From an uncultured Clostridiaceae bacterium (lineage in GTDB: Bacteria; Bacillota; Clostridia; TANB77; CAG-465), in assembly GCA_964653805.1 (NCBI GenBank), contig CAZZFS010000004.1, forward strand, positions 4,182-68,181: 64,000 nucleotides of DNA. The letters run 5' to 3'. Below, in pieces: positions 7,033 to 50,630 of this stretch. The translations under genes were made by a program, and so were the position numbers. A model generated the notes under the pieces. The model saw only the letters and a list, made by a program, of their open reading frames with translations. It did not search any database and was not told the DNA's origin. Within the stretch, counting starts at the first letter, position 1, and each line of letters begins with the position of its first letter.

Positions 7033-7087
7033 TACATTCAATTGAAATTTTTATTTCTTAAATTGGAGGTGAAATGTATTTAAGTTT

Positions 7088-7255
7088 AAAAATAGCGCAT
7101 GAATATATATTATATATATAAATATGTATTGACGAGGATGATAGTTGTCGAAAAAATCAGCGGATTCTATCACGGTAATCTAGTATCGTAATATATAGTA
7201 CAAAGAGTGAAATTTATCTATCACTACAAAAAGCTATATAATCTAGTAAAAAAAA
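7088..7255 (+). ncRNA. glmS ribozyme: glmS ribozyme (GlcN6P-responsive self-cleaving riboswitch)
   Basis: AUAGCGC cleavage-site motif. The core UUGACGAGGAUG AUAG UUGUCGAAAAAAUCAGCGGAU UCUAUC ACGG closely matches the Bacillus glmS core, with GAUAG/CUAUC covarying against GGAGG/CCUCC. The downstream AAAGAGUGAAAU...UCACU element is present. It lies in the 5'UTR of glmS. Confidence 0.85.
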
Positions 7256-9390: not shown

Positions 9391-12300
9391 TTATGAACTT
9401 GCTAAATAATATATTGTAACTGTATATGGATAATATGTATAATAACTTGTACTATATATATATCCAGCATAATTACCAGTATAATTATATGTATTAGTAT
9501 AAGTAACATCTGCTACTTTTTTTGTTACTGTTCCAGAATATAATGCATAATGTATTACAGTTTTACCATCCCCAGCTATTCCAGATTGAGATGACCAATT
9601 TCCAGTAAAATAAATTGTACCTCTATATGTTCCATCATCATATGACCATGGATATCCTGCACCTGGATTATATAAACTACCATGTTGATAATTTACCCAG
9701 TTTGTAAGTGTTTTTGTAGGATAAGTATAAGTTGGTGTTGATACTGTATTTATTGTAACATTTTGATACGATAAATTCCCACTATATGAACCTGAAGTAT
9801 AATATTTAGTTGATGGGAATGAATTAGTAGATTGTGGACCTTGTGTAGTTGTTGCATATTGTGAACTACTTGAGCTTCCTGATGAACCTGATCCACTATA
9901 TACATTTACATATATTGTATTTCCACTTGTTGAATAGCCAACACCACCATTATTAGTTGATACACTACTAACTGATATTAAATTTGGTAATGTTGTTGAT
10001 TGACTTTGACTTTGTGAATAATCTGAGAAATACATTGTTGTAGATCTTGATACTCCATTTATTATATTTACACCATTTGATACATTTGCTGTTTTATTTC
10101 CTGCATTATCTACTGATAATACATGTAAATAATATGTTCCATTTGATAGCGACACTGAAACTGTTTGTGAAGTTGAACTTAATGCATTTGCACTATTCCA
10201 AATTGTTGAATCGGTTGCATATGTTGTAGATTGTGTTGTTGCTATATACCTTGATGCTCCAGCATTTATTCCACTTTGACTATCTGACATTGTTATACTA
10301 CAATTTAATGTACCTGTTGTACTGTATGCACTTAAAGATGCATTTTGTGGTACTGTTTTATCTATATTTGATATTGTTTTTGTACTTGATGTACTCATGT
10401 TTCCTGCTGCATCATACGCTCTTGCATATATTGTTGTACTATTTGTACTCACTGCTATTGGTGCAGTATATTCATTCCATGTTGTTCCATTTGTACTATA
10501 TTGTCTTGTTGTTGAATCACCTGAATATGTTATTGTTACAGATACTGTTCCAGCTGTCCATGTTGTTGGCGATGAAGATATTGTTGGTGCTGTTGGTGGT
10601 GTTACATCGCTACTTACTGTAAATACATTTGATCTATTTGTACTTGAATTCCCTGCTGTATCTGTCGCTTTTATCCATAAATAATATGTTCCATCAACAC
10701 TTTTTGATAAAGCTGTTCCATTTGTAAATGCTACCCACCCACTACTTGGTTCTGTAGTATTATTTGACCATGCATATTGTAATGTGCTTGTATTTAATCC
10801 ACTTCCTCCAACATCATTTACTGTTGATGTTGTACTTATAGATGTTCCATTTCCACCATTTGGACTAAATGCTACTGTTGGTGCTGTTTTATCTATATTT
10901 GTTATTGTTTTGGTACTTATTGTACTTATATTTCCTGATGCATCATATCCTCTAGCATATACTGTTGTATTATTTGTACCAACTACTACTGATGTTGAAT
11001 ATGTAGACCAGTTAGTACCATCTGTACTATATTGTTTTGTTACTGAATCTGCAGAATATGTTATCGTTACTGTAACATTTCCATTTGTCCACGCTGTTGA
11101 ACTTGTCTCCATTGAAGCTGCTGTTGGTGGTGTTATATCTAATGAAAATACATTTGATCTCGCTGTTGTTATATTTCCTGCTTTATCTGCTGTTTTTACC
11201 CATAAATAATATGTTCCATTTTGTGCATATGTTAGCGTTGATCCACTTGTAAATGCTGTCCATCCACTTGATGGTTCTGTTGTACTTGTTGACCAGATAT
11301 ATTGTGCTGTATTTATTCCGCTTCCATTTGTATCTGTTACAGTTGTTACTGTACTTGCTTGAGACATATTACTTCCACCATTTGTTCCAAATGTTACTAC
11401 TGGTGAAACTTTATCTATATTTGTTATATCTAGTATTGCTATATTTGATACATTTTGTGCTTTATCTATTAATTTAGCATATATTTTTGTATTTGCTGTT
11501 ATTGTTAAATTCATAGTATATTTTTGATATGTCACTCCATCTAAACTATAGAATAATTCATCATCTGCATTATCTTTTGTTATTCCAACCGTAATATTAC
11601 TATTCATCCAAGATGGTAATACACTAGGTGTCATTTCAAAACTTGGCATTTGTGGTGCAGTGCTATCTAATTCAAAAATATTATTTGAAATAGTTTCTAC
11701 ACTATCATAACCAATATTTTTTACCGCTCCCGCTAATACTTTTAATTTATATTTACCATCTGCTATTCCTGTTGTATTTATTGTTATTGTTGCCTCTTTA
11801 GAATTTTCTGTACCTGTTATTGTTCCTAATGTAATTGAAGGTTGTGTAGACAATTCTGTCCCCGATTCATTTACTACTTTTATATTTCCATTTAATATTA
11901 CATCTGTTATTTCTACACCTGAAGATATATCCATATAATAATCAACATTTGTTCCAGATTTTACAGGAACGTCAGTTGCTGTTACTAATGTTAAATCTGG
12001 TTTAGCAACTACTAATAAACCTGGTACATCAGTCCCCCATTTATTTTCATCTTTATCGCCACCTTTTAGACAAAGACCACCATCAACAATTTGAAATTTC
12101 CCTTCATATTCATCTTTATTACCTAAACTTTTTATTATTGCAACTACTTCTTCATCAGTATCTGCATTTAAACTTTCAGGCGAAAAAGTTCCTCCTGTTG
12201 TAGCATATTGCTGTGCTTTATATAACTCAAGTTCATCTTTAAAAGAACTTACATCCATTACAAATCTAGCTTTTTTAGCTTCATTTATTGGATTATTACC

Positions 12301-12408
12301 CGAAAACATAAACATTATAGCAGCTACTAAAATTATTAAAACAATAATCGTTATAACTAATACAATTAAATTTATACCTTTTTTCATTTTTTTTCTTTCG
12401 TTATTCAT
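9391..12408 (-). CDS. large membrane-anchored repetitive surface protein (tandem Ig-like repeats, Tyr/Ser-rich C-terminus)
   Basis: Start MNNERKK at 12408 with a GGGGGA RBS. The track's M at 12429 lies in the RBS. There is a basic N-terminus plus one TM helix, then three ~170-aa near-identical repeats (TPPTA...YSTDGT/NGT...YARGYDASGN...NIDKT) and a Y/S/T-rich tail. No LPXTG motif was seen. Confidence 0.75.
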   Translation of the reverse strand: MNNERKKMKKGINLIVLVITIIVLIILVAAIMFMFSGNNPINEAKKARFVMDVSSFKDELELYKAQQYATTGGTFSPESLNADTDEEVVAIIKSLGNKDEYEGKFQIVDGGLCLKGGDKDENKWGTDVPGLLVVAKPDLTLVTATDVPVKSGTNVDYYMDISSGVEITDVILNGNIKVVNESGTELSTQPSITLGTITGTENSKEATITINTTGIADGKYKLKVLAGAVKNIGYDSVETISNNIFELDSTAPQMPSFEMTPSVLPSWMNSNITVGITKDNADDELFYSLDGVTYQKYTMNLTITANTKIYAKLIDKAQNVSNIAILDITNIDKVSPVVTFGTNGGSNMSQASTVTTVTDTNGSGINTAQYIWSTSTTEPSSGWTAFTSGSTLTYAQNGTYYLWVKTADKAGNITTARSNVFSLDITPPTAASMETSSTAWTNGNVTVTITYSADSVTKQYSTDGTNWSTYSTSVVVGTNNTTVYARGYDASGNISTISTKTITNIDKTAPTVAFSPNGGNGTSISTTSTVNDVGGSGLNTSTLQYAWSNNTTEPSSGWVAFTNGTALSKSVDGTYYLWIKATDTAGNSSTNRSNVFTVSSDVTPPTAPTISSSPTTWTAGTVSVTITYSGDSTTRQYSTNGTTWNEYTAPIAVSTNSTTIYARAYDAAGNMSTSSTKTISNIDKTVPQNASLSAYSTTGTLNCSITMSDSQSGINAGASRYIATTQSTTYATDSTIWNSANALSSTSQTVSVSLSNGTYYLHVLSVDNAGNKTANVSNGVNIINGVSRSTTMYFSDYSQSQSQSTTLPNLISVSSVSTNNGGVGYSTSGNTIYVNVYSGSGSSGSSSSSQYATTTQGPQSTNSFPSTKYYTSGSYSGNLSYQNVTINTVSTPTYTYPTKTLTNWVNYQHGSLYNPGAGYPWSYDDGTYRGTIYFTGNWSSQSGIAGDGKTVIHYALYSGTVTKKVADVTYTNTYNYTGNYAGYIYSTSYYTYYPYTVTIYYLASS
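10400..11420. repeat. intragenic ~510-bp tandem DNA repeats (about two full copies, high identity)
   Basis: The opposite-strand ORFs 10397-10684 and 10784-11209 translate to near-identical peptides, reflecting near-identical DNA repeats in the surface-protein gene. Confidence 0.7.
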
Positions 12409-12669
12409 TTTTATCCCCCTAAAAAACATTTCATTATATTTATAATCTATATATTATCATTAAAACAAAAAAAAATCAACCAAAATATTATATTTTTTTA
12501 CAATTTTTTATTATATTTAATAAAAAAATAAAGATGGTTTAAAAAATCAAATCATCTTTATTTTGGTTGAATTTTTTTATATACTATTACTTAATGCATA
12601 TAAGCACTTTTATCGTACTCATTTAGAAAGTCTTTTACATATTCAACATCTGTTATACATGGAACATAT

Positions 12670-18565: not shown

Positions 18566-18919
18566 TGGTGGAGATGGTGAGAATTGAACTCACGTCCAGA
18601 AACCTATTCATACAAAATTCTCCGAGTGCAGTAAATGTTTAAATTTCATCCGTATACTCTAACATTCACAAAACTGTATATAGACTAAATTGAAAAATAC
18701 CCCCTAACGTACAATCATTGTTAGTTTCGTTGGCTAGATTTATTTGATGCCTTTTATTCCTCTCTAGCTAAAAAATAAAACACACACTACCTACTTAGGC
18801 AGCAAAAGCTAACTTATTGTTATCAGCGTTTAAATATTTTTCTCGTTTTTATAGTGGCCCACGAGAATCCACTACTCGCTATTTGTACTTCAAGATAACT
18901 GTCGATACCTTACATCCCC
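18566..18919 (-). ncRNA. ssrA: tmRNA (SsrA)
   Basis: Minus-strand 5' GGGGAUG pairs with a 3' CAUCUCC-ACCA acceptor, including a G3-U wobble. T-arm GUGAG-UUCAAUU-CUCAC. Length 354 nt. Internal tag ORF GCU GAU AAC AAU AAG UUA GCU UUU GCU GCC UAA gives ADNNKLAFAA. Confidence 0.85.
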
Positions 18920-23014: not shown

Positions 23015-23166
23015 TTATTACACCTCCTTAATATATAAAAAAAATTTTTGTAAGACACTACCTAAACGTTTATAGTGTCAAACAAAAATTAAATCTTTTT
23101 ATTTGAATATAAACCTCGGTAGGAATTATGGTTAATACCACCTACTGTCTTAAGTTTTATCTTTTT

Positions 23167-23850
23167 TTATTTTGATGATGGATTTATTTTTATTCCAGCA
23201 CCCATTGTTGTTGTTATTGCAACTGATCTTAAGTAAGTTCCTTTTGCAGCAGCAGGTTTAGCTTTTACTACAACTTCCATTAAAGCAGCGTAGTTTTGTT
23301 TTAACTTTTCTGCACCAAATGAAACTTTACCTATTGGGCAATGCATTATATTAGTTTTATCTAATCTATATTCAATTTTACCAGCTTTGATATCATTGAT
23401 TGCTTTTACAACATCAACAGTTACAGTTCCAGATTTAGGATTTGGCATAAGACCTTTAGGTCCTAATAATTTTGCAATTTTACCAAGAGATGCCATCATA
23501 TCTGGTGTAGCAATAATAGCGTCAAATTCAAACCAATTTTCTTTTTGAATTTTTTCTATCATGTCAACATCACCAACAAAATCAGCTCCAGCTTCTTGTG
23601 CTTGTTGAGCTTTTTCACCTTTAGCAAGTACTAAAACTTTTTTTGTTTTACCAGTTCCGTTTGGAAGAACTAACACACCTCTAACTTGTTGGTCTGCTTG
23701 TCTTGAATCTACACCTAATTTAATATGTAATTCAACTGTTTCATCAAATTTTGCTTTAGGCATTTTTAAAGCTATATCAATAGCTTCATTAATATCATAA
23801 AGTTTACCTGGTTCAACTAACTTTTCAGCTTCTATCATTCTTTTGCTCAT
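23167..23850 (-). CDS. rplA: 50S ribosomal protein L1
   Basis: Start corrected to [10 protein letters not shown] (ATG at 23850) with a GGGGGG RBS. The track's start at 23898 would abut rplK. Confidence 0.9.
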
Positions 23851-26683: not shown

Positions 26684-26757
<74 letters not shown>

Positions 26758-26912
26758 ATTAATTTATTTTAATGTTGCTGTTCCTTAATGCATTATTATT
26801 ATACTAATAATTATATTATTTGTCAATAGTTTTTTTAAAATTTTCTATTTTTTATTTTTTTATGGAGCAATCTTACAATAAGTGACAAACCTTTTTATTT
26901 ATTTGTATTTTA

Positions 26913-27620
26913 TTATTTATTTTTTAATTTAAAAACTTTTCTATTTTTTATTCTATAAGTCCTTCCAGTATATTTTTCTGTATGCAGTAAATATTTTATT
27001 TTATCACCCATATATTCTTCGCCCTTATCAATTGCTATCTCGTTCCAGCTTGGAGTCACGATATTATTATCATTTAATAAATTTAAATCAAAAGTTAATA
27101 CCATTGTTTTTACTTCTTCTATTTTCTTTATAATTTTTTTTGGTGCTTTTAATATTATTGTAAAATTGTACTTATTTCCTTCTGTTTTTTCAATTTGTAT
27201 ATATTTTTGTCTTTCAATAGGTTCAAATTCTAACAAATTAACTTCAGTCTCAATTTTAATTTTTAAATCATCAATTGAAAACATTTGTATCCTTTTATTT
27301 GAATTATTTATTATATTTATAATGAATCTAATATCATTATGATCTCCTTCACATATTTTTTTATCTTGATTCAATTTGGATATGTAATCTTTTTCATTAA
27401 ACTCATTAACAAATGTTTCTTTTAATTTCTGTTCTTTAATAATTAATTCAAATCCGGTATTGTCATATTTAGTATATAAATATTGTTCTTCAGCAAAATC
27501 CGTAATTATACTTTCTAGATTGTTATCTATTGTTTTAAGTTGTTTTGATTGTTTATATAATTGTATAATTGAAATAACTACTCCAATAAATGTCAATCCA
27601 AGTCCAATTTTTCCGACCAT
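26913..27620 (-). CDS. hypothetical protein with N-terminal TM helix
   Basis: ORF only, no recognisable family. Confidence 0.4.
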   Translation of the reverse strand: MVGKIGLGLTFIGVVISIIQLYKQSKQLKTIDNNLESIITDFAEEQYLYTKYDNTGFELIIKEQKLKETFVNEFNEKDYISKLNQDKKICEGDHNDIRFIINIINNSNKRIQMFSIDDLKIKIETEVNLLEFEPIERQKYIQIEKTEGNKYNFTIILKAPKKIIKKIEEVKTMVLTFDLNLLNDNNIVTPSWNEIAIDKGEEYMGDKIKYLLHTEKYTGRTYRIKNRKVFKLKNK

Positions 27621-27724
27621 ATTAATACCTCACTTAATATATTATATATTTTTATTAATCTAAATTCTTTTATTTGAAGAAATCTTCCAACAGGCATAAA
27701 ACCTTTTTAATTATTTTTTTATCA

Positions 27725-28108
27725 TTATTTATTATTTTCTTTCACTCCAAATTGTTTAGCAAAATTAGCTAATGATTCTAGTGTTTCTGCACCTTTTTGT
27801 GGATCTTGAAAATATCCTCCTAAAAATTTGCTAGCCATTTCATTCTTCATTTTTTCTTCATTCTCTTTTAAGGCCAAATCTCTTTCTGCTAATTTTAATT
27901 TTATCTGTTCTTCTGTATTTACTTTCATTCTTTCAATTTCTTTATCTGATGCTTCTATTATCTTTTGTATTTCATTATCAGCCTTAATTTGTACTGCTTT
28001 TATATCGTCTTTTGACTTTCTAATTGCAGCTAAATAAGTTAATAAAGAACTAATAACAGGTACTACAATAGATATACCTAATTGCATTTTCCAATCCATA
28101 ATATTCAC
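27725..28108 (-). CDS. hypothetical membrane-anchored coiled-coil protein
   Basis: ORF with an N-terminal TM segment and charged heptad-like repeats. Confidence 0.4.
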   Translation of the reverse strand: MNIMDWKMQLGISIVVPVISSLLTYLAAIRKSKDDIKAVQIKADNEIQKIIEASDKEIERMKVNTEEQIKLKLAERDLALKENEEKMKNEMASKFLGGYFQDPQKGAETLESLANFAKQFGVKENNK

Positions 28109-28114
28109 ACTCCT

Positions 28115-28618
28115 CTATTTTACTTCTTTTTCATATCCTATAAGCCTTTTATCATCTATAATCCAACTACTATCTTCTATTTTTTCAAATCCATATTTTT
28201 CATATAATGACATTGCTATTTTATTATCTATATGAAGCATTAATCTCACGACTTCATAGTTATTTTCTATTGCGTAATTTTCTATATAATCCATAGCATT
28301 TTTAGAATATCCCTTACCTTGACAATCAACATCAATAACTAGTCTATTGATATAAAAGAACTTTTTATTTTTATATTTCCAATTTATAACGTGATATTCT
28401 GGATAATCAAAGTCAGTTAAAGCAAAACTACCAATTATTTTTTTACCGTCCTCTAAAACATACATGTCTTTATCTTTTATATTTTTCTCAAATTCACAAA
28501 AAGGATAAATATCATTCCACATATTTATTTTTTTATTATTATGTATATCTTCAATAATACGTTTATATAATTCATTAATTCTATCTAAATCATCAATTCT
28601 TGCTAACCTTATATTCAT
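28115..28618 (-). CDS. GNAT family N-acetyltransferase
   Basis: Acetyl-CoA binding motif VIDVDCQGKGYSKNAM (Q/RxxGxG/A), 167 aa. Confidence 0.7.
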   Translation of the reverse strand: MNIRLARIDDLDRINELYKRIIEDIHNNKKINMWNDIYPFCEFEKNIKDKDMYVLEDGKKIIGSFALTDFDYPEYHVINWKYKNKKFFYINRLVIDVDCQGKGYSKNAMDYIENYAIENNYEVVRLMLHIDNKIAMSLYEKYGFEKIEDSSWIIDDKRLIGYEKEVK

Positions 28619-28749
28619 AATAATTATTTCCTTTCGTAAAAAATATATTTTTAATATATTACACTATTAAAATTTAAAACTTTATAATTGATTATTTATT
28701 AAACACTTTATTAATAAGTGGATCAATCTTCCAACAGGCATTAAAACTT

Positions 28750-29172
28750 TTATATCTCTTTTTTTATTATTTCACTTAGTAACTCGATTAACCAGTCAGC
28801 ACCAAAAATTAATTTTAAATTCACCATATCTATTAAGTATTTTCTTCTAAAATTATCGTAATCTATTATAATTTCATAGTCTAAATTTTCCAATTTGTTT
28901 CCTTCGTGAACTAAATTGCAACGGAAATATTCATAAATAATTTCTTCAAGAGGAATAATTTTATTCTTCTCTTCTACTCTAATACTTTCCTCAAATTCAA
29001 AAGTCATTATAAATTTTTCGTGCAAATAATTTGTATATCTCTTTTTATTAGATTTTTCATTTGAAAAACGTTTTTTTGCCAAGCTATCTATGCAACATAG
29101 TAACAATAATAAGCAACTAGCTTTTCTATTATTTTTATATAAATACATCGAATCATTGTACATCCATTCCAT
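28750..29172 (-). CDS. hypothetical protein
   Basis: ORF only. Confidence 0.35.
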   Translation of the reverse strand: MEWMYNDSMYLYKNNRKASCLLLLLCCIDSLAKKRFSNEKSNKKRYTNYLHEKFIMTFEFEESIRVEEKNKIIPLEEIIYEYFRCNLVHEGNKLENLDYEIIIDYDNFRRKYLIDMVNLKLIFGADWLIELLSEIIKKEI

Positions 29173-29254
29173 ATTTTATCACCTATACTAATTATACATT
29201 ACTTTTTACAAAAAGAAAACGAACTTCTTATTAGAAGTTCAATTAATCTCTAAA

Positions 29255-29328
29255 TGGAGCGGGTTGTGGGAATCGGACCCACGCCAAAAGATCGGAAGCC
29301 TTTTATACTGCCACTATACTAAACCCGC
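29255..29328 (-). tRNA. tRNA-Gly (anticodon UCC), second distinct gene, with G37 and a G-U closing pair in the anticodon stem
   Basis: The reverse complement is GCGGGTTTAGTATAGTGGCAGTATAAAAGGCUUCCGAUCUUUUGGCGUGGGUCCGAUUCCCACAACCCGCUCCA. Its T-arm and acceptor 3' half are identical to the tRNA at 26684-26757. Confidence 0.6.
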
Positions 29329-40439: not shown

Positions 40440-40609
40440 ATAATTATCCCCCTTCAAAAACTATTCAAACATTTGTTCAGTTGAATTATACTATTAAAAA
40501 AAAACATTGTCAATACTTTTTTTGTTTTTTTTATAATATTTTTTAATAACTACATTTTAAAATATTTAAGAAGATATAATTTGAAATTATATCTTCTTAA
40601 ATATTAAAT

Positions 40610-42538: not shown

Positions 42539-42621
42539 ATATAGGTATTACATGGTTGGTCGGCTTAATCCCGGAAGAGTTTGACAAACTAATTTTTTAT
42601 ATTTTAGGAGGAAAATTCATT

Positions 42622-43056
42622 ATGAATAATACTACACATAGCGTAAAAGCAAAAGAAATTGAAAGAAAATGGCATATTATAGATGCAGATTCAAAACCTC
42701 TTGGTAGAGTTGCTACAGAAGTAGCTAAATTATTAAAAGGAAAACACAAACCAACTTATTCAACACACTTAGATTGTGGTGACTATGTTATAGTTATAAA
42801 TACTGATAAAATAGTTTTAACTGGAAATAAATTAAATAAAAAAATTTATAGACATCATTCAGGATATATTGGTGGAATGAAAGAAACTGTTGCTAAAGAT
42901 TTCATGGAAAAAAAATCAGATAGAGCTTTAGAATTAGCAGTTAAAGGAATGTTACCTAAAAATACTTTAGGTAGAGAAATGTTTAAGAAATTAAAAGCAT
43001 ATAAAGGTAGCGAGCATAATAACGAAGCTCAAAAACCTGAATTATGGAATTTTTAG
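42622..43056 (+). CDS. rplM: 50S ribosomal protein L13
   Basis: Start MNNTTH with a GGAGG RBS. The track's ORF is extended in-frame upstream. Confidence 0.9.
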
Positions 43057-43070
43057 GAGGTAATTAGAAA

Positions 43071-43466
43071 ATGGCACAAAAAGAATACATATATGCAACA
43101 GGTAAAAGAAAATCATCTATTGCTAGAGTTAATATAATACCTGGAACAGGTAAAATAACTATAAACAAAAAAGATATGAATGAAGTTTACAACTTAGATA
43201 CTTTAAAAGCTATCGTTTTAAAACCTTTTAAAGTTGCACAAATGATGGAAAAATACGATGTAGTTGCTACTACTCGTGGTGGTGGATTTGCTGGTCAAGC
43301 TGGTGCATTATCTCATGGAATAGCAAAAGCTTTAGCTTCTACAGATCCTGAAATTCGTTCTGTATTAAAAAGAAACGGATTATTAACTAGAGATTCTAGA
43401 GTTAAAGAAAGAAGAAAATATGGATTGAAAAAAGCTAGAAAAGCTCCTCAATTCTCGAAAAGATAA
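43071..43466 (+). CDS. rpsI: 30S ribosomal protein S9
   Basis: C-terminal RKAPQFSKR motif, 131 aa. Confidence 0.95.
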   Translation: MAQKEYIYATGKRKSSIARVNIIPGTGKITINKKDMNEVYNLDTLKAIVLKPFKVAQMMEKYDVVATTRGGGFAGQAGALSHGIAKALASTDPEIRSVLKRNGLLTRDSRVKERRKYGLKKARKAPQFSKR

Positions 43467-43532
43467 TCAAGAATATACAAAAACACCAAACTATTATGTT
43501 TGGTGTTTTCTTTGTTTTGATGGTTGGAATTA

Positions 43533-43976
43533 TTAATTATTCCTTTTTTCTCTTGCAGATGATTCATCTAAAAAAATCTCAATGCCTATTTTTCCTATAG
43601 GCACGCTTTTTCCTTTATTTAAACAAATAACTAAATCTGTGAAACCATTAATATATTCATTTCGTACACCAACAACAGTTTTCTTAAAAACTCTATTACC
43701 TATTCGTTGGTATACAATTGAAGTAGGTTTTGGTAATTTATCTGCAACTTCTGCTGCTCTTGATTTACTATCAAAAATCAAACGTCCATAGTCTTTAACG
43801 TTATATCTTTGATATGTATCACCATATAAAACCAAATCAAAACCTTCTGCTTCTTCATCAATATCAATAATCTCAGCATATGTCTCAAAAGCCTGCATCC
43901 CACAAGAACTCCCCCAACAATCAACTACATATAATTCTTGACCTTTTTTGAAAATCCGTTTTTCTTTACTTAACAT
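43533..43976 (-). CDS. hypothetical protein
   Basis: ORF only. Confidence 0.4.
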   Translation of the reverse strand: MLSKEKRIFKKGQELYVVDCWGSSCGMQAFETYAEIIDIDEEAEGFDLVLYGDTYQRYNVKDYGRLIFDSKSRAAEVADKLPKPTSIVYQRIGNRVFKKTVVGVRNEYINGFTDLVICLNKGKSVPIGKIGIEIFLDESSAREKRNN

Positions 43977-44111
43977 AAAAAAACCTCCTATAATAATATT
44001 TATGTATTATTATAGCATTATATTATAATTATGTCAAATAAAAAACTATTTTATAATATCTCTTTATTCATTCAATTGAAAAAATTAATTCTACATTGAA
44101 GAGAATATATA

Positions 44112-44243
44112 AAACTCTCTACGTAATATGCACATAATATGCAAAAATCAATACAACTACTGCAAACACTGTATTTGTAACTAGCGAAAAGATAATCAAA
44201 AAGATGTTCAAAAGCTCCAACCTCAATGATTTGGAGCTTTTTT
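44112..44243. repeat. ~130-bp intergenic repeat copy A, containing the terminator hairpin agctccaacctcaatgatttggagct plus T-run
   Basis: About 96% identical to 44950-45081 (5 mismatches over about 130 bp). Contains two direct aatatgca motifs. Confidence 0.8.
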
Positions 44244-44376
44244 CTATATGATAGTTAGCTTTTTTATTATTCCAATTTTATTTAGGCAACATTCAATTTT
44301 TCATTTTTATAATTTTATATTAAAACCACGTAATCAACAGGTAGTTGACAAATTATATAACAGTATCTACTTCATT

Positions 44377-44892
44377 TTAATCACAAAAAACTTCTTTCCA
44401 ATCATTAAATATTTTATTACATACTATATATAATTCAATCATTTTATCTTCTACTTTAACATAATATGTTGTTCCTCTAAACGTGAAATTAGAATAATCC
44501 ATATTGGCGTAATCAAATCCTAAATTTTTAACTTTACCTTTTTCAAATTGTTTTTTCTTATTAAAGTGTTTGCTCCTATTACATAAAGATTTTATTGTAT
44601 CAAATTCTTTATTTATATTTGGATTAAGTTTTATTTTATCGTTTTCTATTTTAACAAAACCAAATATTGTTTTGCATTTTGCTTTTTTCACATTATCAAA
44701 ATCATTATCTGCAATAACCCACTCCAATAAATGATTTGCTGTAAATATAAAATTCATATAATTATATGCATTGGGATTTTCATCAGTCAACAACATAAAA
44801 TCATGTTCCAGTTTTTTGTACAAGTCATTTGCATCTACCATATCAAAAAAAGGCATATTATCTTGATTAATATCTTTCATAAACACCACCAT
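44377..44892 (-). CDS. hypothetical protein
   Basis: ORF flanked on both sides by the 130-bp repeats. Confidence 0.45.
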   Translation of the reverse strand: MVVFMKDINQDNMPFFDMVDANDLYKKLEHDFMLLTDENPNAYNYMNFIFTANHLLEWVIADNDFDNVKKAKCKTIFGFVKIENDKIKLNPNINKEFDTIKSLCNRSKHFNKKKQFEKGKVKNLGFDYANMDYSNFTFRGTTYYVKVEDKMIELYIVCNKIFNDWKEVFCD

Positions 44893-44949
44893 AAATATTA
44901 TATCATATTAACAAATTTTAATAAAGTAAAGTTATATAAAATACTCCCA

Positions 44950-45081
44950 AACTCTCTACGTAATATGCATATAATATGCAAAAATCTATACAACTACTGC
45001 AAATACTGCATTTGTAACTAGCGAAAAGATAATCAAAAAGATGTTCAAAAGCTCCAACCTCAATGGTTTGGAGCTTTTTTA
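44950..45081. repeat. ~130-bp intergenic repeat copy B with terminator hairpin
   Basis: See copy A. The hairpin sits about 20 bp past the stop of the AAA ATPase gene. Confidence 0.8.
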
Positions 45082-45095
45082 TTTTAATAACTGGA

Positions 45096-46313
45096 CTATA
45101 TATTTTCCTTTTCAAGTAAAAAATCTAACGCATTTACTTGTTTTATTCCATTATGATATATTATAGGATTAAAATCCATAGTTATAAGAATTTTAGGAAA
45201 ATGATCTTTTATACTTTCAAATGGTCTTAATTCTCTTTTTAAAGTGTTTTCATCTTGAACTGTTAAAGCTACTTGTATATATTTAAGTCCATCTTTATTT
45301 GAAACCACAAAATCAATTTCTTCTGTATTACTTTTACCTATGTATATTTCATATCCTCTTCTTTTTAATTCTAAAAATATTATATTTTCTAATATATGTC
45401 CCATATCAGTATTAGTTTTACTTCCAAGTAAATAGTTTCTAAGACCTATATCAGATAAATAGTATTTTTCTAGAGTTTTTAAATATTGTTTTCCTTTTAT
45501 ATCATACCTATTTACTCTATATAAAATATAGCTTTCTGTAAGTGTAGAAATATAACTTTCAATTGTATTTATTGAATTTTTTCTTCCCATAGAAATTAAA
45601 CTATCACTTATTTTTTTAGTCGAAACTATACATCCAACATTGTCAAATAAAAATCTTACTACACTATCCAATATCATTACATCATTTATACGTTTTCTGT
45701 TAATTATATCTTTCATTAAAACAGTCATATAAATACTATCTAGATAATTATATATTAATTCTTTATCATCATTTAAATTAATTATATATGGAAATCCTCC
45801 ATTTTCTAAATACTTACTATATTTTATCAACAAATCACTATCACCATAATATGATATGTATTCTTTAAAAGATAATGGTAGAATATGAATTTCCATATAT
45901 CTTCCTGTTAAATAAGTAGCAAGTTCACCAGATAGCATATATGAATTAGAACCAGTTATATATATATCTACATTCTCTCTTAAAAATAAACTATTTACAC
46001 ATTTTTCAAATTCATCTACCATTTGTATTTCATCTAAAAATATATAATTCATTTTTTGTTTATCTAATTTACTAACAATAAATTCATGAAGTATATCAGA
46101 ATTTAATAAATGTTTATTACTATTATCCTCAAAGTTGATTGATATAATTTGATCTTCGTTTACATTTGTATTAATTAAATATGATTTATATATTTTCAAT
46201 ATAGTAGATTTTCCACAACGTCTTATTCCTGTTATTACTTTTATTATTTGTTTATCTTTTAATTTTTTTAATTTTTCTAAATATATACTTCTTTCTATCA
46301 TAAAATCACCCAT
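45096..46313 (-). CDS. AAA+ ATPase of the DUF4143/COG1373 family
   Basis: Walker A GIRRCGKST and a DUF4143-like C-terminal region, 405 aa. The start may be the internal MIERS. Confidence 0.65.
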   Translation of the reverse strand: MGDFMIERSIYLEKLKKLKDKQIIKVITGIRRCGKSTILKIYKSYLINTNVNEDQIISINFEDNSNKHLLNSDILHEFIVSKLDKQKMNYIFLDEIQMVDEFEKCVNSLFLRENVDIYITGSNSYMLSGELATYLTGRYMEIHILPLSFKEYISYYGDSDLLIKYSKYLENGGFPYIINLNDDKELIYNYLDSIYMTVLMKDIINRKRINDVMILDSVVRFLFDNVGCIVSTKKISDSLISMGRKNSINTIESYISTLTESYILYRVNRYDIKGKQYLKTLEKYYLSDIGLRNYLLGSKTNTDMGHILENIIFLELKRRGYEIYIGKSNTEEIDFVVSNKDGLKYIQVALTVQDENTLKRELRPFESIKDHFPKILITMDFNPIIYHNGIKQVNALDFLLEKENI

Positions 46314-46683
46314 ATATATTATACACCATTAAGTTTAAAAAGTAAAGTTTTTTCGCTCTAATGAAAAAACTTTACTTAAAACGATGTTTTTTTCATATGA
46401 TATTATATTTTATATTTTAGTTAAATTACCTTAGATTTTATAAAGCTCACCATGCATTTTTTCAACTTTTTTCACTAATTTTTTTTGACTGTTATATAAA
46501 AAGATAATTATTAATAAACATTAGAACATCAGATTTTTATGTTAAGATATTGCTTTTGAAACTTTATTATGCTATAATATTTAAATTATTTGATTAAAAA
46601 GTCTAAAGTAATTATAGAGGACAACTACCCTATATTATTTTAGATTTTTTTGTCTAAAATTTATTCTAGGAGGATATAAAAAA

Positions 46684-47049
46684 ATGGATAGTATTTATGT
46701 ACTTGGCATTAGTGTACTTTATGTTATTAAGGATATTGTGTTGGTTTTCGCGTGTATTATGCTTACTCTTTGTTTTTGTAGACTTCTATATATGTGTGTA
46801 ATAGAGATACCTTTACCAGAACGAATAATCGAAAAACGTATTACAAAAATAATATTTGTAATATGTTTGGTGCTAGTGTTTGTTATAGGCGTTTTTATAA
46901 ACATTTATATATTAGACATACAATTTACATTTTATGAAATCCCAAGATACTTTTATACATTTTTCGCTGCAATTTCGATAATAGATATAATAATTTTATG
47001 TTTATATCTAATGTTTTTATCTGTAAAAATGTTTTTAAATCTATTCTAG
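46684..47049 (+). CDS. small integral membrane protein
   Basis: AGGAGGA RBS, 3-4 predicted TM helices, and a terminator hairpin at 47070-47098. Confidence 0.5.
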   Translation: MDSIYVLGISVLYVIKDIVLVFACIMLTLCFCRLLYMCVIEIPLPERIIEKRITKIIFVICLVLVFVIGVFINIYILDIQFTFYEIPRYFYTFFAAISIIDIIILCLYLMFLSVKMFLNLF

Positions 47050-47117
47050 AAAAAATCAGAAAATAATTAAAACAGGTATGACTTTATACCTGTTTTAATT
47101 ATTTATTAAATTGTACT

Positions 47118-47789
47118 TTATCTAATTGACTTTCTATTATAATCAGTTACATCATTACCAATCTCTTCATATAATTCTTTTACTGTTATTTCTTTTCTTT
47201 TTAAAGCTAACAATTCTTCATTTGTAACACCAACAAACTCTATAAAATTAACCAATCCATTTGGTGTATTAATTGATTTTAGATTCGTATCAGGAATTAT
47301 AATAAAACCTGTTATATTTGATTGTCTTTTTGTGTCTATACCATTAGTTTGACCTGTATATAAATATTCATATTCACTAAATAATTCATCTTGTGTAAAA
47401 GTGATTTTTGCAATTTGCTGTAATATTCCACATATACCCTTTATTTCTGCTTCTTCATTCTCATAATTATCTTTTTTTAATTTAAACGTAAATTCCATTC
47501 CATAACCACTAATATTTTTATTGTCTGTTTCGTTTTTATATAATTCAGATAATCCGTAAGTAACAAAATGCCAATACTCTCCTCCATCATATACACTTAT
47601 ACCATCAAGTGGATCATTACCACCTAAATCCCATTTTATTAATGTTCCATAATGTTTAGGATTAGTTTGTTTTGCATAAACTCTTTCACACTCTTGTGTA
47701 ATTGCGTCCCAACCTAATAATTTTATTTCTTCAGTTTCATTTATTTCCTCATTAGTATCTTTGTTTTTATCAAATATTTCCATAATCAC
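47118..47789 (-). CDS. SUFU-like (suppressor-of-fused family) protein, immunity-protein type
   Basis: GWDAI...HYGT...WDLGG...DGISVY...YWHFVTYGLSEL pattern typical of bacterial SUFU domains. Confidence 0.6.
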   Translation of the reverse strand: MIMEIFDKNKDTNEEINETEEIKLLGWDAITQECERVYAKQTNPKHYGTLIKWDLGGNDPLDGISVYDGGEYWHFVTYGLSELYKNETDNKNISGYGMEFTFKLKKDNYENEEAEIKGICGILQQIAKITFTQDELFSEYEYLYTGQTNGIDTKRQSNITGFIIIPDTNLKSINTPNGLVNFIEFVGVTNEELLALKRKEITVKELYEEIGNDVTDYNRKSIR

Positions 47790-47834
47790 ATCTCACTTTC
47801 AAATTATTATTTACTATTGTAGTATATCTTAATT

Positions 47835-48599
47835 TTAGGAACAATCCCAATCCACTATTGCATTTTCAAAATTACAATTTTCAATATCTTCTTGCGAAAT
47901 CAAAGTAAATAATATACCAGAATCCCCAATTTGAAATTTATCATAGTTATCCCAAGAATCTAATTTAAATAAACATTCATCTCTATTTTCTTTCATATCA
48001 TATCTAGGATCTTCTTGCGTAAAATCAGGATAGCCACCTAATACAATAGAATCATTTTCATTAATATTATAAAGTTTCTCCGTCCAATCAAAATCACCAA
48101 AATACTTATATAAATCAATATGATTTTCTAATTGTATACCATATATTTCATTAACTATTGAAGAAAATATTTCAAAAAATCTATAATCATTTATACTCAT
48201 ATAACATCTTGTTTTTGTAAGATTTATTCCATATGGTTCCTTAATAATATAATTACTAGTATCAACTTCTGGTAAATCAACTTGATATTCAAGCCCTTCT
48301 TCAAAATATTTAATTGCATATTGGCAAGGATAATCAACTTTATAATCTGTAAATATTTCAATTATTCCCTTTTTAGGATAACCTTTTAAATCAATATTTT
48401 TCAAATTAACTTGTAATGTTAAGGCTAAATTATTTCCATCTTTATCTTTTGGATATTCTTCACCTATTGGCAAATAAGGTTTCCCACCAATTTTATCATC
48501 CAGTATAGCTGGATTTTTTTCTGCTAAATCAATCTTGTAACAATCCTTCCCAGTTCTTTCTTTAAATAGTTCAATTACTTTTTCAAATTTTTCTTCCAT
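47835..48599 (-). CDS. DUF1963/YwqG-family protein (immunity-protein type)
   Basis: IGGKPYLP, ILFTL and GDSG motifs of the YwqG family. Confidence 0.55.
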   Translation of the reverse strand: MEEKFEKVIELFKERTGKDCYKIDLAEKNPAILDDKIGGKPYLPIGEEYPKDKDGNNLALTLQVNLKNIDLKGYPKKGIIEIFTDYKVDYPCQYAIKYFEEGLEYQVDLPEVDTSNYIIKEPYGINLTKTRCYMSINDYRFFEIFSSIVNEIYGIQLENHIDLYKYFGDFDWTEKLYNINENDSIVLGGYPDFTQEDPRYDMKENRDECLFKLDSWDNYDKFQIGDSGILFTLISQEDIENCNFENAIVDWDCS

Positions 48600-48908: not shown

Positions 48909-49202
48909 CTATAATCTAGTATACTTAGGTATAGAAAAATCATAATCTGTTATAAGTTCTCCAGTAGGCAATGTTAATTGCAAATTATTTGTTATCAAAT
49001 CAGCATAACTGTATGACAGCTTGCTTTCTGTTTCACATTCTTTAAAAACAAACAAATTTGAATAAGCACTATCTATTGTACCTTTTTTTCTAACACTTTT
49101 ATTTCTACCTACATTAGCTATAACGCATATCTCTTGACCTACATAATTCTCAACTTCTTGCTTAATCTTAAGTAGTGTATTTTTTGAAACCATTTTTACC
49201 AC
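48909..49202 (-). CDS. veg: Veg family protein
   Basis: The SYSYADLIT motif matches B. subtilis Veg (SYSYADILT). About 86-97 aa. Confidence 0.75.
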   Translation of the reverse strand: MVKMVSKNTLLKIKQEVENYVGQEICVIANVGRNKSVRKKGTIDSAYSNLFVFKECETESKLSYSYADLITNNLQLTLPTGELITDYDFSIPKYTRL

Positions 49203-49388: not shown

Positions 49389-50630
49389 TTACAAAGGTTT
49401 TTTTATATATTCAAGTGCTTTTTGTAATTGTGTATCTTTGTCTTTAGGTATAACTGTTTCATTTTTTACATCTTCAGGTAAATCCACTTTTATATTTGGT
49501 TCAATTCCATTTTTATGAATTTCTATTCCACTTGCAGTATAATATTTTGATGTTGTAATTGAAATAGCATCTCCAAATGATAATCTTTCTATTGTTTGAA
49601 CTATTCCTTTTCCGTAAGTTTTATTTCCTATTAAAATTCCTTTTTGTGAATCTTTAACTGCACTTGCAAGAATTTCAGATGCACTTGCACTACTTGAGTT
49701 AACAAGCACTACTAATGGTATATTTATTACAGATGTTCCTTCAGAATTATATACTTTAGTAGAACCATCTTTTTTTACTAATTTTAAAACTTCACCTTTT
49801 GGTAATAATAAACTTAATATATCTATTGTTTCATTAACTAATCCACCAGGATTATTTCTTAAATCTATAACAAGTCCTGATACATTTTTTGCTTTTAAAG
49901 CTTCATACTCTGCTTTAAATTGATCACAAATTCCATTTTCAAAAGACCATATTTTTATATAACCTATATTGTTTTCTAAAACTTCTGATTCTGTGTTATT
50001 AGTAACTATTTTTTTTCTCATTGCTTCTTTTGTAATTAATTCTTCGCCTCTTTTTACTTTTAAAGTAACTTTTGTTCCTGCGACACCTTTTAATTTTTCA
50101 ACCGCTTCTTTATAATTATCAATTGTTACAACCATATCGTCAACTTGTAAAATAACATCATTATTTTTCAATCCTGCTTCTAAAGCTGGCGAATTAGGCA
50201 TTAAACCTAAAATTAATATTCCATTTCTTTTAACATCATATGTTATATGAACTCCAATACCGTCATATTCTTCTTTTCCTTCAACAAGCATTTTATCATA
50301 TTCTTCTTTTGATACATATCTTGTATATGGATCTCCAGTTGCTTCAGCCATACCATCAATTGCACCTTCAACAACTTTTTCCATATCTACGTCATCTACA
50401 TATTCTGTTTGGATTTTAACCATAGCTTCTTTTATTCTATCAAGATATTGTTGTGTTTCTTTTGAGTTTTCAACAGCTGCTTTACTGCTTTTTTCCGTTA
50501 TTTTAGGCGAAATTATAATATACAATGATATTGCAACTATCCCTACCAATAATATTGTAATAGAAGCTGTAAGCGCATTACTAACTACTTTCCACTTATC
50601 TATTTTTTTATTTTCATCATTTTCATTCAT
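49389..50630 (-). CDS. ctpA: S41 family C-terminal processing protease with PDZ domain
   Basis: N-terminal TM helix, PDZ domain, and S41 catalytic region (GLVIDLRNNPGG...SASASE). Confidence 0.85.
   Translation of the reverse strand: MNENDENKKIDKWKVVSNALTASITILLVGIVAISLYIIISPKITEKSSKAAVENSKETQQYLDRIKEAMVKIQTEYVDDVDMEKVVEGAIDGMAEATGDPYTRYVSKEEYDKMLVEGKEEYDGIGVHITYDVKRNGILILGLMPNSPALEAGLKNNDVILQVDDMVVTIDNYKEAVEKLKGVAGTKVTLKVKRGEELITKEAMRKKIVTNNTESEVLENNIGYIKIWSFENGICDQFKAEYEALKAKNVSGLVIDLRNNPGGLVNETIDILSLLLPKGEVLKLVKKDGSTKVYNSEGTSVINIPLVVLVNSSSASASEILASAVKDSQKGILIGNKTYGKGIVQTIERLSFGDAISITTSKYYTASGIEIHKNGIEPNIKVDLPEDVKNETVIPKDKDTQLQKALEYIKKPL

Follow-up and report, generated by a model that had tools for sequence, protein, structure and literature searches.

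Candidate recombination sites between variable gene modules behind rpsI in an uncultured Clostridiaceae bacterium

What are two nearly identical intergenic repeats doing on either side of a single small gene, and how did they come to stand there? The repeats lie in a stretch of 64,000 nt (hereafter, the window) from an uncultured Clostridiaceae bacterium (contig CAZZFS010000004.1, positions 4,182 to 68,181), for which a first, sequence-only reading had left the choice between a recent duplication, a recombination or cassette-capture site, and a repeated small RNA or regulatory element. Comparison with related genomes indicates that both copies belong to a strain- and species-variable island of self-contained modules anchored at the stop codon of rpsI, the gene for ribosomal protein S9. 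We lean toward reading the repeats as att-like recombination sites of integrase-less cassettes that have accumulated at the 3' end of rpsI, with a recombinase acting in trans.

The repeat unit and its relation to the rpsI 3' end

A repeat search finds a single direct repeat of 132 nt in the window (GC content about 24%), located on the plus strand at 44112 to 44243 (copy A) and 44949 to 45080 (copy B) and characterized further by folding and a motif scan. The copies are 96% identical and differ at exactly 5 positions (44133, 44150, 44167, 44172, and 44229), in agreement with the sequence-only reading, whose coordinates hold for copy A but have to be moved one base to the left for copy B. Each copy indeed contains two AATATGCA motifs 11 nt apart (44125 to 44143 in copy A and 44962 to 44980 in copy B), and no further pair of this kind occurs elsewhere in the 64 kb when up to 2 mismatches are allowed (chance expectation 0.25). 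Each also contains the GC-containing hairpin noticed at the outset, with an A-run before it, a T-run after it, and perfect 11-bp arms, at 44210 to 44241 in copy A (arms 44210 to 44220 and 44231 to 44241) and at 45047 to 45078 in copy B (arms 45047 to 45057 and 45068 to 45078), with folding energies of roughly -13 to -17 kcal/mol for both strands. Their loops of 10 nt exceed the limit of our terminator scan, which for this reason did not list them. The hairpins combine the features of an intrinsic terminator, i.e., a GC-containing stem-loop with a T-run whose pairing is kept by compensatory changes (double-sided at 4 stem pairs among the 11 copies compared), and the one other helix in the consensus fold is invariant across copies and thus without covariation. 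Given the A- and T-run flanks, the compensated pairing, and the kinship with the rpsI terminator described below, termination in both directions is plausible. Open reading frames (ORFs) and promoter and terminator scans further bear out the placement of the copies relative to the minus-strand genes, each copy having the 3' end of a gene on one side and the promoter region of the following gene on the other.

The full conserved unit extends past these 132 nt, in copy A from a TATAAA box just upstream (44108 to 44113) to a motif at 44247 to 44257. According to a consensus of 11 to 17 copies from several genomes, its left half comprises the TATAAA box, CTCTCTAC, two (T)AATATGCA motifs 11 nt apart, and an invariant AAAATC, followed in the right half by about 23 variable nucleotides, an invariant ATTTGTAACTA (44173 to 44183 in copy A), an 11-nt core CGAAAAGATAA (44185 to 44195 in copy A and 45022 to 45032 in copy B), a spacer of 12 to 16 nt, the hairpin with its T-run, and usually TTTGATAGTTA. 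In almost every copy, the TATAAA box marks the left boundary, some 7 nt ahead of CTCTCTAC, and the 5' part of the unit (approximately 75 nt) is built of invariant sequence blocks without covariation. A junction motif, TAACTATCAAA, spans the boundary between this 5' part and the core, and its reverse complement is TTTGATAGTTA, which recurs beyond the hairpin at a fixed offset: 9 of 14 units match it at 9 or more of its 11 positions, compared with 2% of random windows. Behind copy A, this inverted copy reads TATGATAGTTA (44247 to 44257, plus strand) and is the first conserved element of the adjoining module 2 (see below). The number of AATATGC motifs is modular and reaches 4 in locus L036, a strain of the P0010 lineage in which four tandem 11-nt units (ataatatgcat acaatatgcaa gtaatatgcgt ataatatgcac) follow the rpsI terminator at positions 1020 to 1065 and the contig ends just beyond.

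Several simpler identities of the repeat were rejected. No ORF is conserved across the copies; a small plus-strand ORF (MHIICKN...ICN) has no ribosome-binding site and has lost its start or stop in several copies, and an open frame on the minus strand (...DYLFASYKCS...CIDFCIL...) lacks a start codon in copy A, runs into stops in diverged copies, and carries substitutions that are not coding-like. The 5' part does not behave as a core promoter because its distance to the next start codon varies (54 to 214 nt), and the promoter scan finds no match inside it. Intergenic repeats of the miniature inverted-repeat transposable element or repetitive extragenic palindrome type do not fit either: the repeat has no terminal inverted repeats, its copies are not dispersed but confined to the island behind rpsI, and its 3' half is host rpsI sequence.

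This last feature, the origin of the repeat 3' half in the rpsI 3' end and terminator, had been missed by the sequence-only reading, which recognized the cassette arrangement but not its anchoring at rpsI. The last 11 nt of rpsI (43071 to 43466, plus strand; ORF, with PF00380 in related loci) at 43456 to 43466 are the core CGAAAAGATAA, encoding the final codons (...S K R) and the stop. From CGAAAAGATAA onward, the repeat 3' half aligns with the rpsI stop region and on through the rpsI terminator, so that rpsI and the repeats have 62 to 66 nt in common at about 85% identity. The resulting rpsI-proximal half-site (43456 to 43526, plus strand) consists of the core, a spacer, a bidirectional terminator hairpin (43480 to 43509), and the motif TTTGATGGTTG (43516 to 43526). 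A profile built from 11 family copies detects only copies A and B as full copies in the window plus this one half-copy at the rpsI end (nhmmer, 43454 to 43516, profile positions 83 to 147, E 2.5e-7), so that the element is not a generic terminator. The 5' part of about 75 nt has no counterpart in rpsI, and we rejected the idea that it is a decayed rpsI 3' end since no similarity is left of the core.

The core tracks the host. In the window species, rpsI and the repeats both read CGAAAAGATAA; in two relatives (L011 and L013), both read CAAAGAGATAA, a difference that is synonymous in rpsI, and the repeats of a third relative (L012) also carry the CAAAGAGATAA core. As is typical of insertion at a gene 3' end, the gene end is thus duplicated as a direct repeat at each junction, with the core present at the end of rpsI and in every repeat. 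In L003 and L004, where RpsI is identical and the three genes described below are absent, the repeat hairpin (gctccaacc...ggtttggagc) follows rpsI, and the rpsI terminators of outgroups belong to the same hairpin family as the repeats. In the window, the sequence right of the rpsI core belongs to the module of a 147-aa gene and recurs behind a full 5' part and core in L008 and L009.

Gene modules behind rpsI in the window and its relatives

Each module, read on the minus strand, consists of a leader of about 75 nt (the 5' part of the repeat), its own promoter, one gene, and a terminator hairpin. Adjacent modules join at the 11-nt core, and a full repeat is therefore composed of the right end of one module, the core, and the terminator end of the next. 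Module 1 (43467 to 44184, minus strand) comprises a terminator, the 147-aa gene (43533 to 43976), its own promoter, and the 5' part of copy A; the promoter (44037 to 44009) lies outside the repeat and matches the consensus at 12 of 12 positions (TTGACA-17-TATAAT, with TG). Module 2 (44196 to 45021, minus strand) comprises a terminator, a 167-aa gene (44377 to 44880) whose start we place at MKDINQ, behind the ribosome-binding site GGTGGTG, a -10-like element TGATATAAT (44905 to 44897), and the 5' part of copy B, as delimited by ORFs, scans, and relatives. Module 3 (45033 to 46444, minus strand) comprises a terminator, the gene of an AAA_14/DUF4143 ATPase (45096 to 46313; hereafter, the AAA gene), and its upstream region, ending at TATAAA (46439 to 46444).

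A search of related genomes, as the sequence-only reading had called for, shows that the repeat family flanks varied single genes behind rpsI. By a pattern scan of 185,579 species genomes followed by nhmmer, the family was found in a handful of metagenome-assembled genomes (MAGs) of low-GC Clostridia/Bacillota, and the diverged copies in other genomes are 75% to 88% identical. Among contigs that encode an identical RpsI or 147-aa protein, L008 to L010 have the AAA and 147-aa genes with a single repeat, and the 167-aa gene is absent; that repeat is a hybrid whose 5' part is A-type and whose 3' flank is that of copy B. On the rpsI side of the 147-aa gene, L008 and L009 have a full 5' part and core and then exactly the spacer, hairpin, and flank that follow rpsI in the window. 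L011 reads rpsI, AAA gene, repeat, and then yunB, and L013 reads rpsI, AAA gene, repeat, GNAT gene, repeat, and then a 517-aa gene. In L024, a homologue of the 167-aa gene (86% identical protein) is joined with its hairpin and flank straight to the rpsI stop codon. L012, which comes from the same organism as L018 and L019, carries two copies 2.65 kb apart. In L017, HAD, DUF2200, 154-aa, and AbiU2 genes are kept apart by five or more diverged repeats, and the extension of this locus as L049 (GCA_023410645.1) reveals that this array likewise begins at rpsI. Mostly single-gene, co-oriented cassettes between members of one repeat family are thus seen in the window, in L013, and in L017/L049. Behind rpsI in L049 (9478 to 9739), two core-plus-hairpin half-copies also stand 185 nt apart with no gene between them, which looks like an "empty" or decayed module.

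Taken together, occupied or differently occupied sites bounded at the repeat (L003/L004, L008 to L010, L011, L013, L024, L033, and L049) can be set against rpsI-yunB outgroups. More distant relatives lack the repeat family, and what comes straight after their rpsI is yunB, sipL, veg, and ctpB or else a different gene or a few of them. L003 and L004 were rejected as truly empty sites, having a different segment of about 250 bp at this place with about 50 nt in common with the upstream end of the AAA module. Each of the three modules of the window is found behind the rpsI stop in one genome and behind a 5' part and core in another, and the homology of all three always breaks at the core. The hairpin goes with the gene that it terminates (an acaccaaac hairpin accompanies the 147-aa gene in both contexts), and the 5' part goes with the gene that it precedes (the AAA-associated 5' parts of L008 and L013 both read ...aaatgcta...). 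This presence, absence, and reordering of modules at the core between strains and species favors the recombination or cassette-capture site among the identities proposed initially. The modules also look horizontally mobile, as they resemble each other across genomes more closely than the host backbone does: with L013, the window is 87.5% identical in the AAA module, 81% in rplM-rpsI, and 73% in the EAL/recA region, and the 167-aa module of the window is 88.8% identical to that of L024, where the rpsI ends differ at 5 of 21 positions.

Candidate recombination sites and rival explanations

We infer the action of a site-specific recombinase because the module boundary is constant to the nucleotide for unrelated genes; because the host-specific core fits strand exchange at or beside it; because the block conservation, the helically phased direct repeats, and the inverted motif pair resemble protein-binding sites; and because tyrosine integrases at the streptococcal rpsI 3' end provide a precedent. 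This enzyme, whose gene would lie at another place in the genome or on a helper element, would recognize three conserved blocks, namely the pair of AATATGCA motifs one helical turn apart, the junction motif TAACTA|TC(A/G)AA(G/A)AGATAA, and its inverted copy TTTGATAGTTA past the hairpin. A circularized module would then recombine with the rpsI end or with any resident repeat, resulting in insertion, excision, or reordering. Each incoming module would bring its own copy of the rpsI 3' end and a terminator, which would leave rpsI intact and terminated and the modules transcriptionally insulated.

A number of observations weigh against this reading, beginning with the recombinase. A Pfam scan of 26 larger ORFs of the window (all but ten ORFs of at least 150 aa in 1 to 18.5 kb and a few others) found no recombinase gene with PF00589 or another such domain, and none was found by Pfam in the 10 kb flanking the L049 array on each side or in any examined locus carrying the repeat. 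Viral contigs (pattern scan) and phage and plasmid collections (blastn) do not contain the repeat and so point to no helper element, and no circular or excised form of a module was observed among the sequences compared. The distance from the junction motif to its inverted copy (about 60 nt) does not suit a simple core site, given that those of tyrosine recombinases have spacings of 6 to 8 nt. The window itself lacks the third repeat expected right of the AAA gene and has none around its SUFU and DUF1963 genes; a full diverged copy stands at that exact point in L008, starting directly after the common ...ttttataaa (46436 to 46444 in the window), where the window instead continues with sequence common to L003. 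In L033/L034, a 5-kb island of other genes at rpsI has the half-site and no internal full repeat. Finally, homologous recombination over 60 to 130 nt of repeat can explain deletions and some reshuffling, and a deletion across the core-plus-hairpin homology of about 60 nt could place any module beside rpsI.

No integrase was found behind rpsI in five further RpsI lineages (P0022, P0010, P0019, P0016, and L049), of which P0022, P0019, and P0016 lack the repeat family. A metagenome scan for the repeat returned only the two ends of the L012 contig. Twelve viral-contig matches to three AATATGC units were rejected as unrelated 11-nt tandem repeats from viruses of 26% to 62% GC, in a number close to chance.

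The best-surviving rival dispenses with a dedicated recombinase altogether. In this scenario, the repeats serve as portable homology, each combining a copy of the rpsI terminator region with a conserved leader, over which RecA would shuffle modules, e.g., after natural transformation, similar to the "minimal mobile elements" of Neisseria. The A/B hybrid of L008 to L010 is exactly the expected product of a crossover between copies A and B, the stretch common to rpsI and the repeats would suffice for occasional deletions that bring modules to rpsI, and the scanned ORFs and loci did not yield the recombinase that this scenario does without. Between species, however, repeat identity drops to 75% to 87% and uninterrupted matches to about 15 nt at most, which suits homologous recombination poorly, and modules yet appear to have moved between lineages. 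Neutral homology would also not keep invariant blocks, phased AATATGCA motifs, and an inverted motif at a fixed offset, and the first attachment of the 5' part to unrelated genes at the same nucleotide is left unexplained. We regard homologous recombination alone as an unlikely account of the locus.

Less probable still is that the cassette layout is secondary and that the repeat primarily encodes a small RNA (a plus-strand transcript of about 125 nt from the TATAAA box to the hairpin) or serves as an operator whose AATATGCA sites bind one regulator for the island genes. The near-constant TATAAA box at the left edge and the strong terminator at the right edge agree with such a function, as do a plus-strand fold with z = -2.4 and the consistent position of the 5' part upstream of a minus-strand gene. 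Yet Rfam gave no match at the gathering threshold or at E up to 10, the terminator accounts for the fold signal and is the only place with compensatory changes, and there is no conserved -35 or extended -10 element (nor any sigma-70-type promoter) to go with an empty promoter scan of the 5' part; the small RNA proposed by the sequence-only reading thus found no backing. The variable start-codon distance also speaks against a regulatory role, and neither the rpsI core nor the presence/absence polymorphism is explained. A small-RNA or operator function could nevertheless coexist with recombination sites.

A single local duplication in tandem of 837 bp, or an artefact of assembly, for which the presence of only two full copies in the window, their 96% identity, and the breaking of short-read contigs L001 and L002 at the repeat might be quoted, is highly improbable and already contradicted by the comparative data, considering that the flanking genes are mutually unrelated, that the DNA between the copies is not duplicated, that the same family (with copies of 75% to 88% identity in other genomes) flanks different genes in at least 5 other lineages, and that the copies differ at 5 sites, differences kept by independent assemblies (L001, L002, and L008 to L010) that span the junctions. 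The recent duplication offered by the sequence-only reading is borne out only in part, and the high identity noted there reflects common or homogenized site sequence.

Known systems, cargo, and neighboring features

Among known systems, the nearest parallels to how the array appears to work are site-specific accretion at a gene 3' end and the arrays of integrons and of attC-site clusters without an integron-integrase (CALINs). Tyrosine integrases of three families target the 3' end of rpsI in streptococci, where elements often accrete in tandem and partner elements are decayed or lack an integrase, the latter being the cis-mobilizable elements (CIMEs) (PMC5357655, PMC5704250). Such accretion by tyrosine integrases occurs there at the 3' ends of other ribosomal-protein genes as well (Pavlovic 2004, as cited in the same two papers). 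The shared features are the target itself (the last rpsI codons), a direct repeat with the target-gene 3' end at each junction, a tandem pile-up with internal att sites, partner elements that may be integrase-less, and the restoration of the gene end by the incoming element. In contrast, the units of the window are only 0.7 to 1.4 kb long with one gene each and no integrase, relaxase, or oriT-like module, all of them carry one conserved arm of about 75 nt despite unrelated genes, and the architecture recurs in several species-level lineages of uncultured Clostridia. Moreover, the loci examined contain no cognate integrase, either in the tandem or on a co-resident helper. We therefore do not consider the array a typical tandem of integrative and conjugative elements, integrative and mobilizable elements, or CIMEs because its units are single-gene modules with one conserved arm and no known integrase.

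Complete integrons have been reported to be absent from Firmicutes, where CALINs were found (PMC4889954). Like those, the array has mostly single-gene, co-oriented cassettes between a family of repeats of about 100 to 160 bp that are similar within a genome and diverged between genomes, with the site after the ORF on the coding strand, inverted ...TAAC.../...GTTA... motifs around a central hairpin, and, as in CALINs, no integrase nearby. Unlike an integron, it has no IntI (the tyrosine recombinase beside attI), and its anchor is rpsI, i.e., the 3' end of a housekeeping gene downstream of the cassettes instead of an attI upstream of them. By inspection, the repeats also lack the R''/L''-L'/R' symmetry of attC sites, with spacers of about 10 and 26 nt, and the outer motifs TAACTATCAAA and TTTGATAGTTA fit GTTRRRY and RYYYAAC only with 1 to 2 mismatches. 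The cassettes have their own promoters and terminators and not a common cassette promoter (Pc), and the 75-nt leader with its helically phased repeats has no integron counterpart. Without IntI and canonical attC symmetry and boxes, and with its own promoters and a downstream anchor, the array does not belong to the integron family as defined.

Two further systems offer partial parallels. The clusters of recombinase-associated acquired interbacterial defense (rAID-1) of Bacteroidales start with a XerD-family recombinase gene (bioRxiv 10.1101/471110). Similar to the island described here, which also holds SUFU and DUF1963 family genes, they are arrays of orphan accessory or immunity-type genes with repetitive intergenic sequences reminiscent of integrons, but no XerD-family recombinase is present among the ORFs that we scanned, the phylum and the repeat differ, and the SUFU and DUF1963 genes of the window are not separated by repeats. 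The pdif (Xer) modules of Acinetobacter plasmids and the integrative mobile elements that exploit Xer are discrete units for whose movement the recombinase is supplied from outside; in the former, inverted XerC/XerD sites of 28 bp with a 6-nt spacer form the boundaries. We likewise propose gene modules that lie between recombination sites and depend on an external recombinase, though the sites in the window are direct repeats of about 130 to 160 bp, and no dif-like site was recognized.

A bolder and decidedly tentative extension of the recombination-site reading would be an undescribed gene-capture system of uncultured low-GC Clostridia, built like an inverted integron. The rpsI stop region would be its permanent dock for one-gene cassettes, each with its own promoter, terminator, and site of about 160 bp (AATATGCA repeats, junction motif, hairpin, and inverted junction motif), which would be moved in trans by a recombinase encoded elsewhere, possibly a host Xer-type enzyme or a domesticated integrase, making it a functional equivalent in Firmicutes for collecting defense and immunity genes. 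If the repeats are such sites, gut Clostridia have a compact and recurring gene-capture locus that gathers single genes of defense or immunity type behind an essential ribosomal gene in a recombinase-less array. The idea of cassette arrays as known from integrons, CALINs, rAID-1, and CIME accretion would then extend to a phylum reported to be without complete integrons, and the defined site of about 160 bp together with its dock at the rpsI stop region would be directly testable. In practice, the repeat breaks short-read assemblies at this locus and marks a hotspot of strain-variable accessory genes in MAGs of the clade.

Judged by the protein families that they encode, the cargo genes across the repeat family are of accessory, defense, or immunity type, including PDC-S01, HEPN AbiU2, GNAT, ASCH, DUF6338, SUFU, and DUF1963. 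The AAA_14/DUF4143 ATPase of module 3, assigned by Pfam, is the PADLOC candidate defense family PDC-S01 (E 9e-155), and its family is found in the rpsI islands of five lineages (the window, L008 to L010, L011, L013, and L033). The 147-aa protein has no match in Pfam, NCBIfam, PHROG, or PADLOC; its family comprises 67 representative clusters, and a single-sequence structure model is unusable (predicted local distance difference test [pLDDT] score of 37). For the 167-aa protein, no match was found in Pfam, NCBIfam, or PADLOC and only a weak one in PHROG (E 8.6e-4, a function-unknown family), and its AlphaFold model (pLDDT 74, predicted template modeling score 0.74) has no significant fold match in the PDB. 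Some of its seven homologues lie in an integrase-bearing element or in a neighborhood of restriction-modification or defense type in other organisms, and no copy of the repeat is present at those loci. One homologue (52% identical; L020/L021) is part of a small element with a helix-turn-helix gene, a zinc-ribbon protein, and a PF00589 integrase, and the gene family thus also travels on such elements.

The remainder of the variable island (46445 to 48599) is free of repeats according to ORFs, Pfam, and the profile search. It contains an ORF for a membrane-like protein of 121 aa (46684 to 47049, plus strand) and, adjacent to each other and without flanking repeats, the SUFU-family gene (47118 to 47789) and the DUF1963 gene (47835 to 48599), both on the minus strand and assigned by Pfam. 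Both families are listed among the immunity proteins of polymorphic toxins. The island is framed by conserved genes identified from ORFs and Pfam, with rplM (42556 to 43056, plus strand) on the side of rpsI and veg (48909 to 49202) and a ctpB-like gene (49389 to 50630), both on the minus strand, on the other. Between 43466 and 48909, the window has the variable island only and lacks the sporulation genes yunB and sipL, which L026, L051, and L061 have between rpsI and veg.

A second small cassette-like island may be anchored at a tRNA gene at 26684 to 29328. Two minus-strand tRNA-Gly(TCC) genes (26684 to 26757 and 29255 to 29328; 78% identical) bracket four small minus-strand genes there (a 235-aa gene without Pfam match, a 127-aa gene, a 167-aa GNAT gene, and a 140-aa gene), and a motif of about 45 to 70 nt (...ATCTTCCAACAGGCATAAAACCTTTTTA...) occurs 3 times at gene boundaries (26839 to 26908, 27651 to 27720, and 28695 to 28764). 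Between a recA-like ORF and an EAL/HD gene, positions 40561 to 40605 form a perfect 22-nt palindrome (AATATTTAAGAAGATATAATTT / AAATTATATCTTCTTAAATATT) whose arms are separated by 1 nt. The 1012-aa ORF at 9391 to 12429 contains internal repeats of about 525 to 550 nt with 66% to 82% identity, which suggests tandem protein domains. At the Rfam gathering threshold, the window also matches a glmS ribozyme (7083 to 7249), a tmRNA (18566 to 18919; tag ADNNKLAFAA), and an L10 leader (23074 to 23172).

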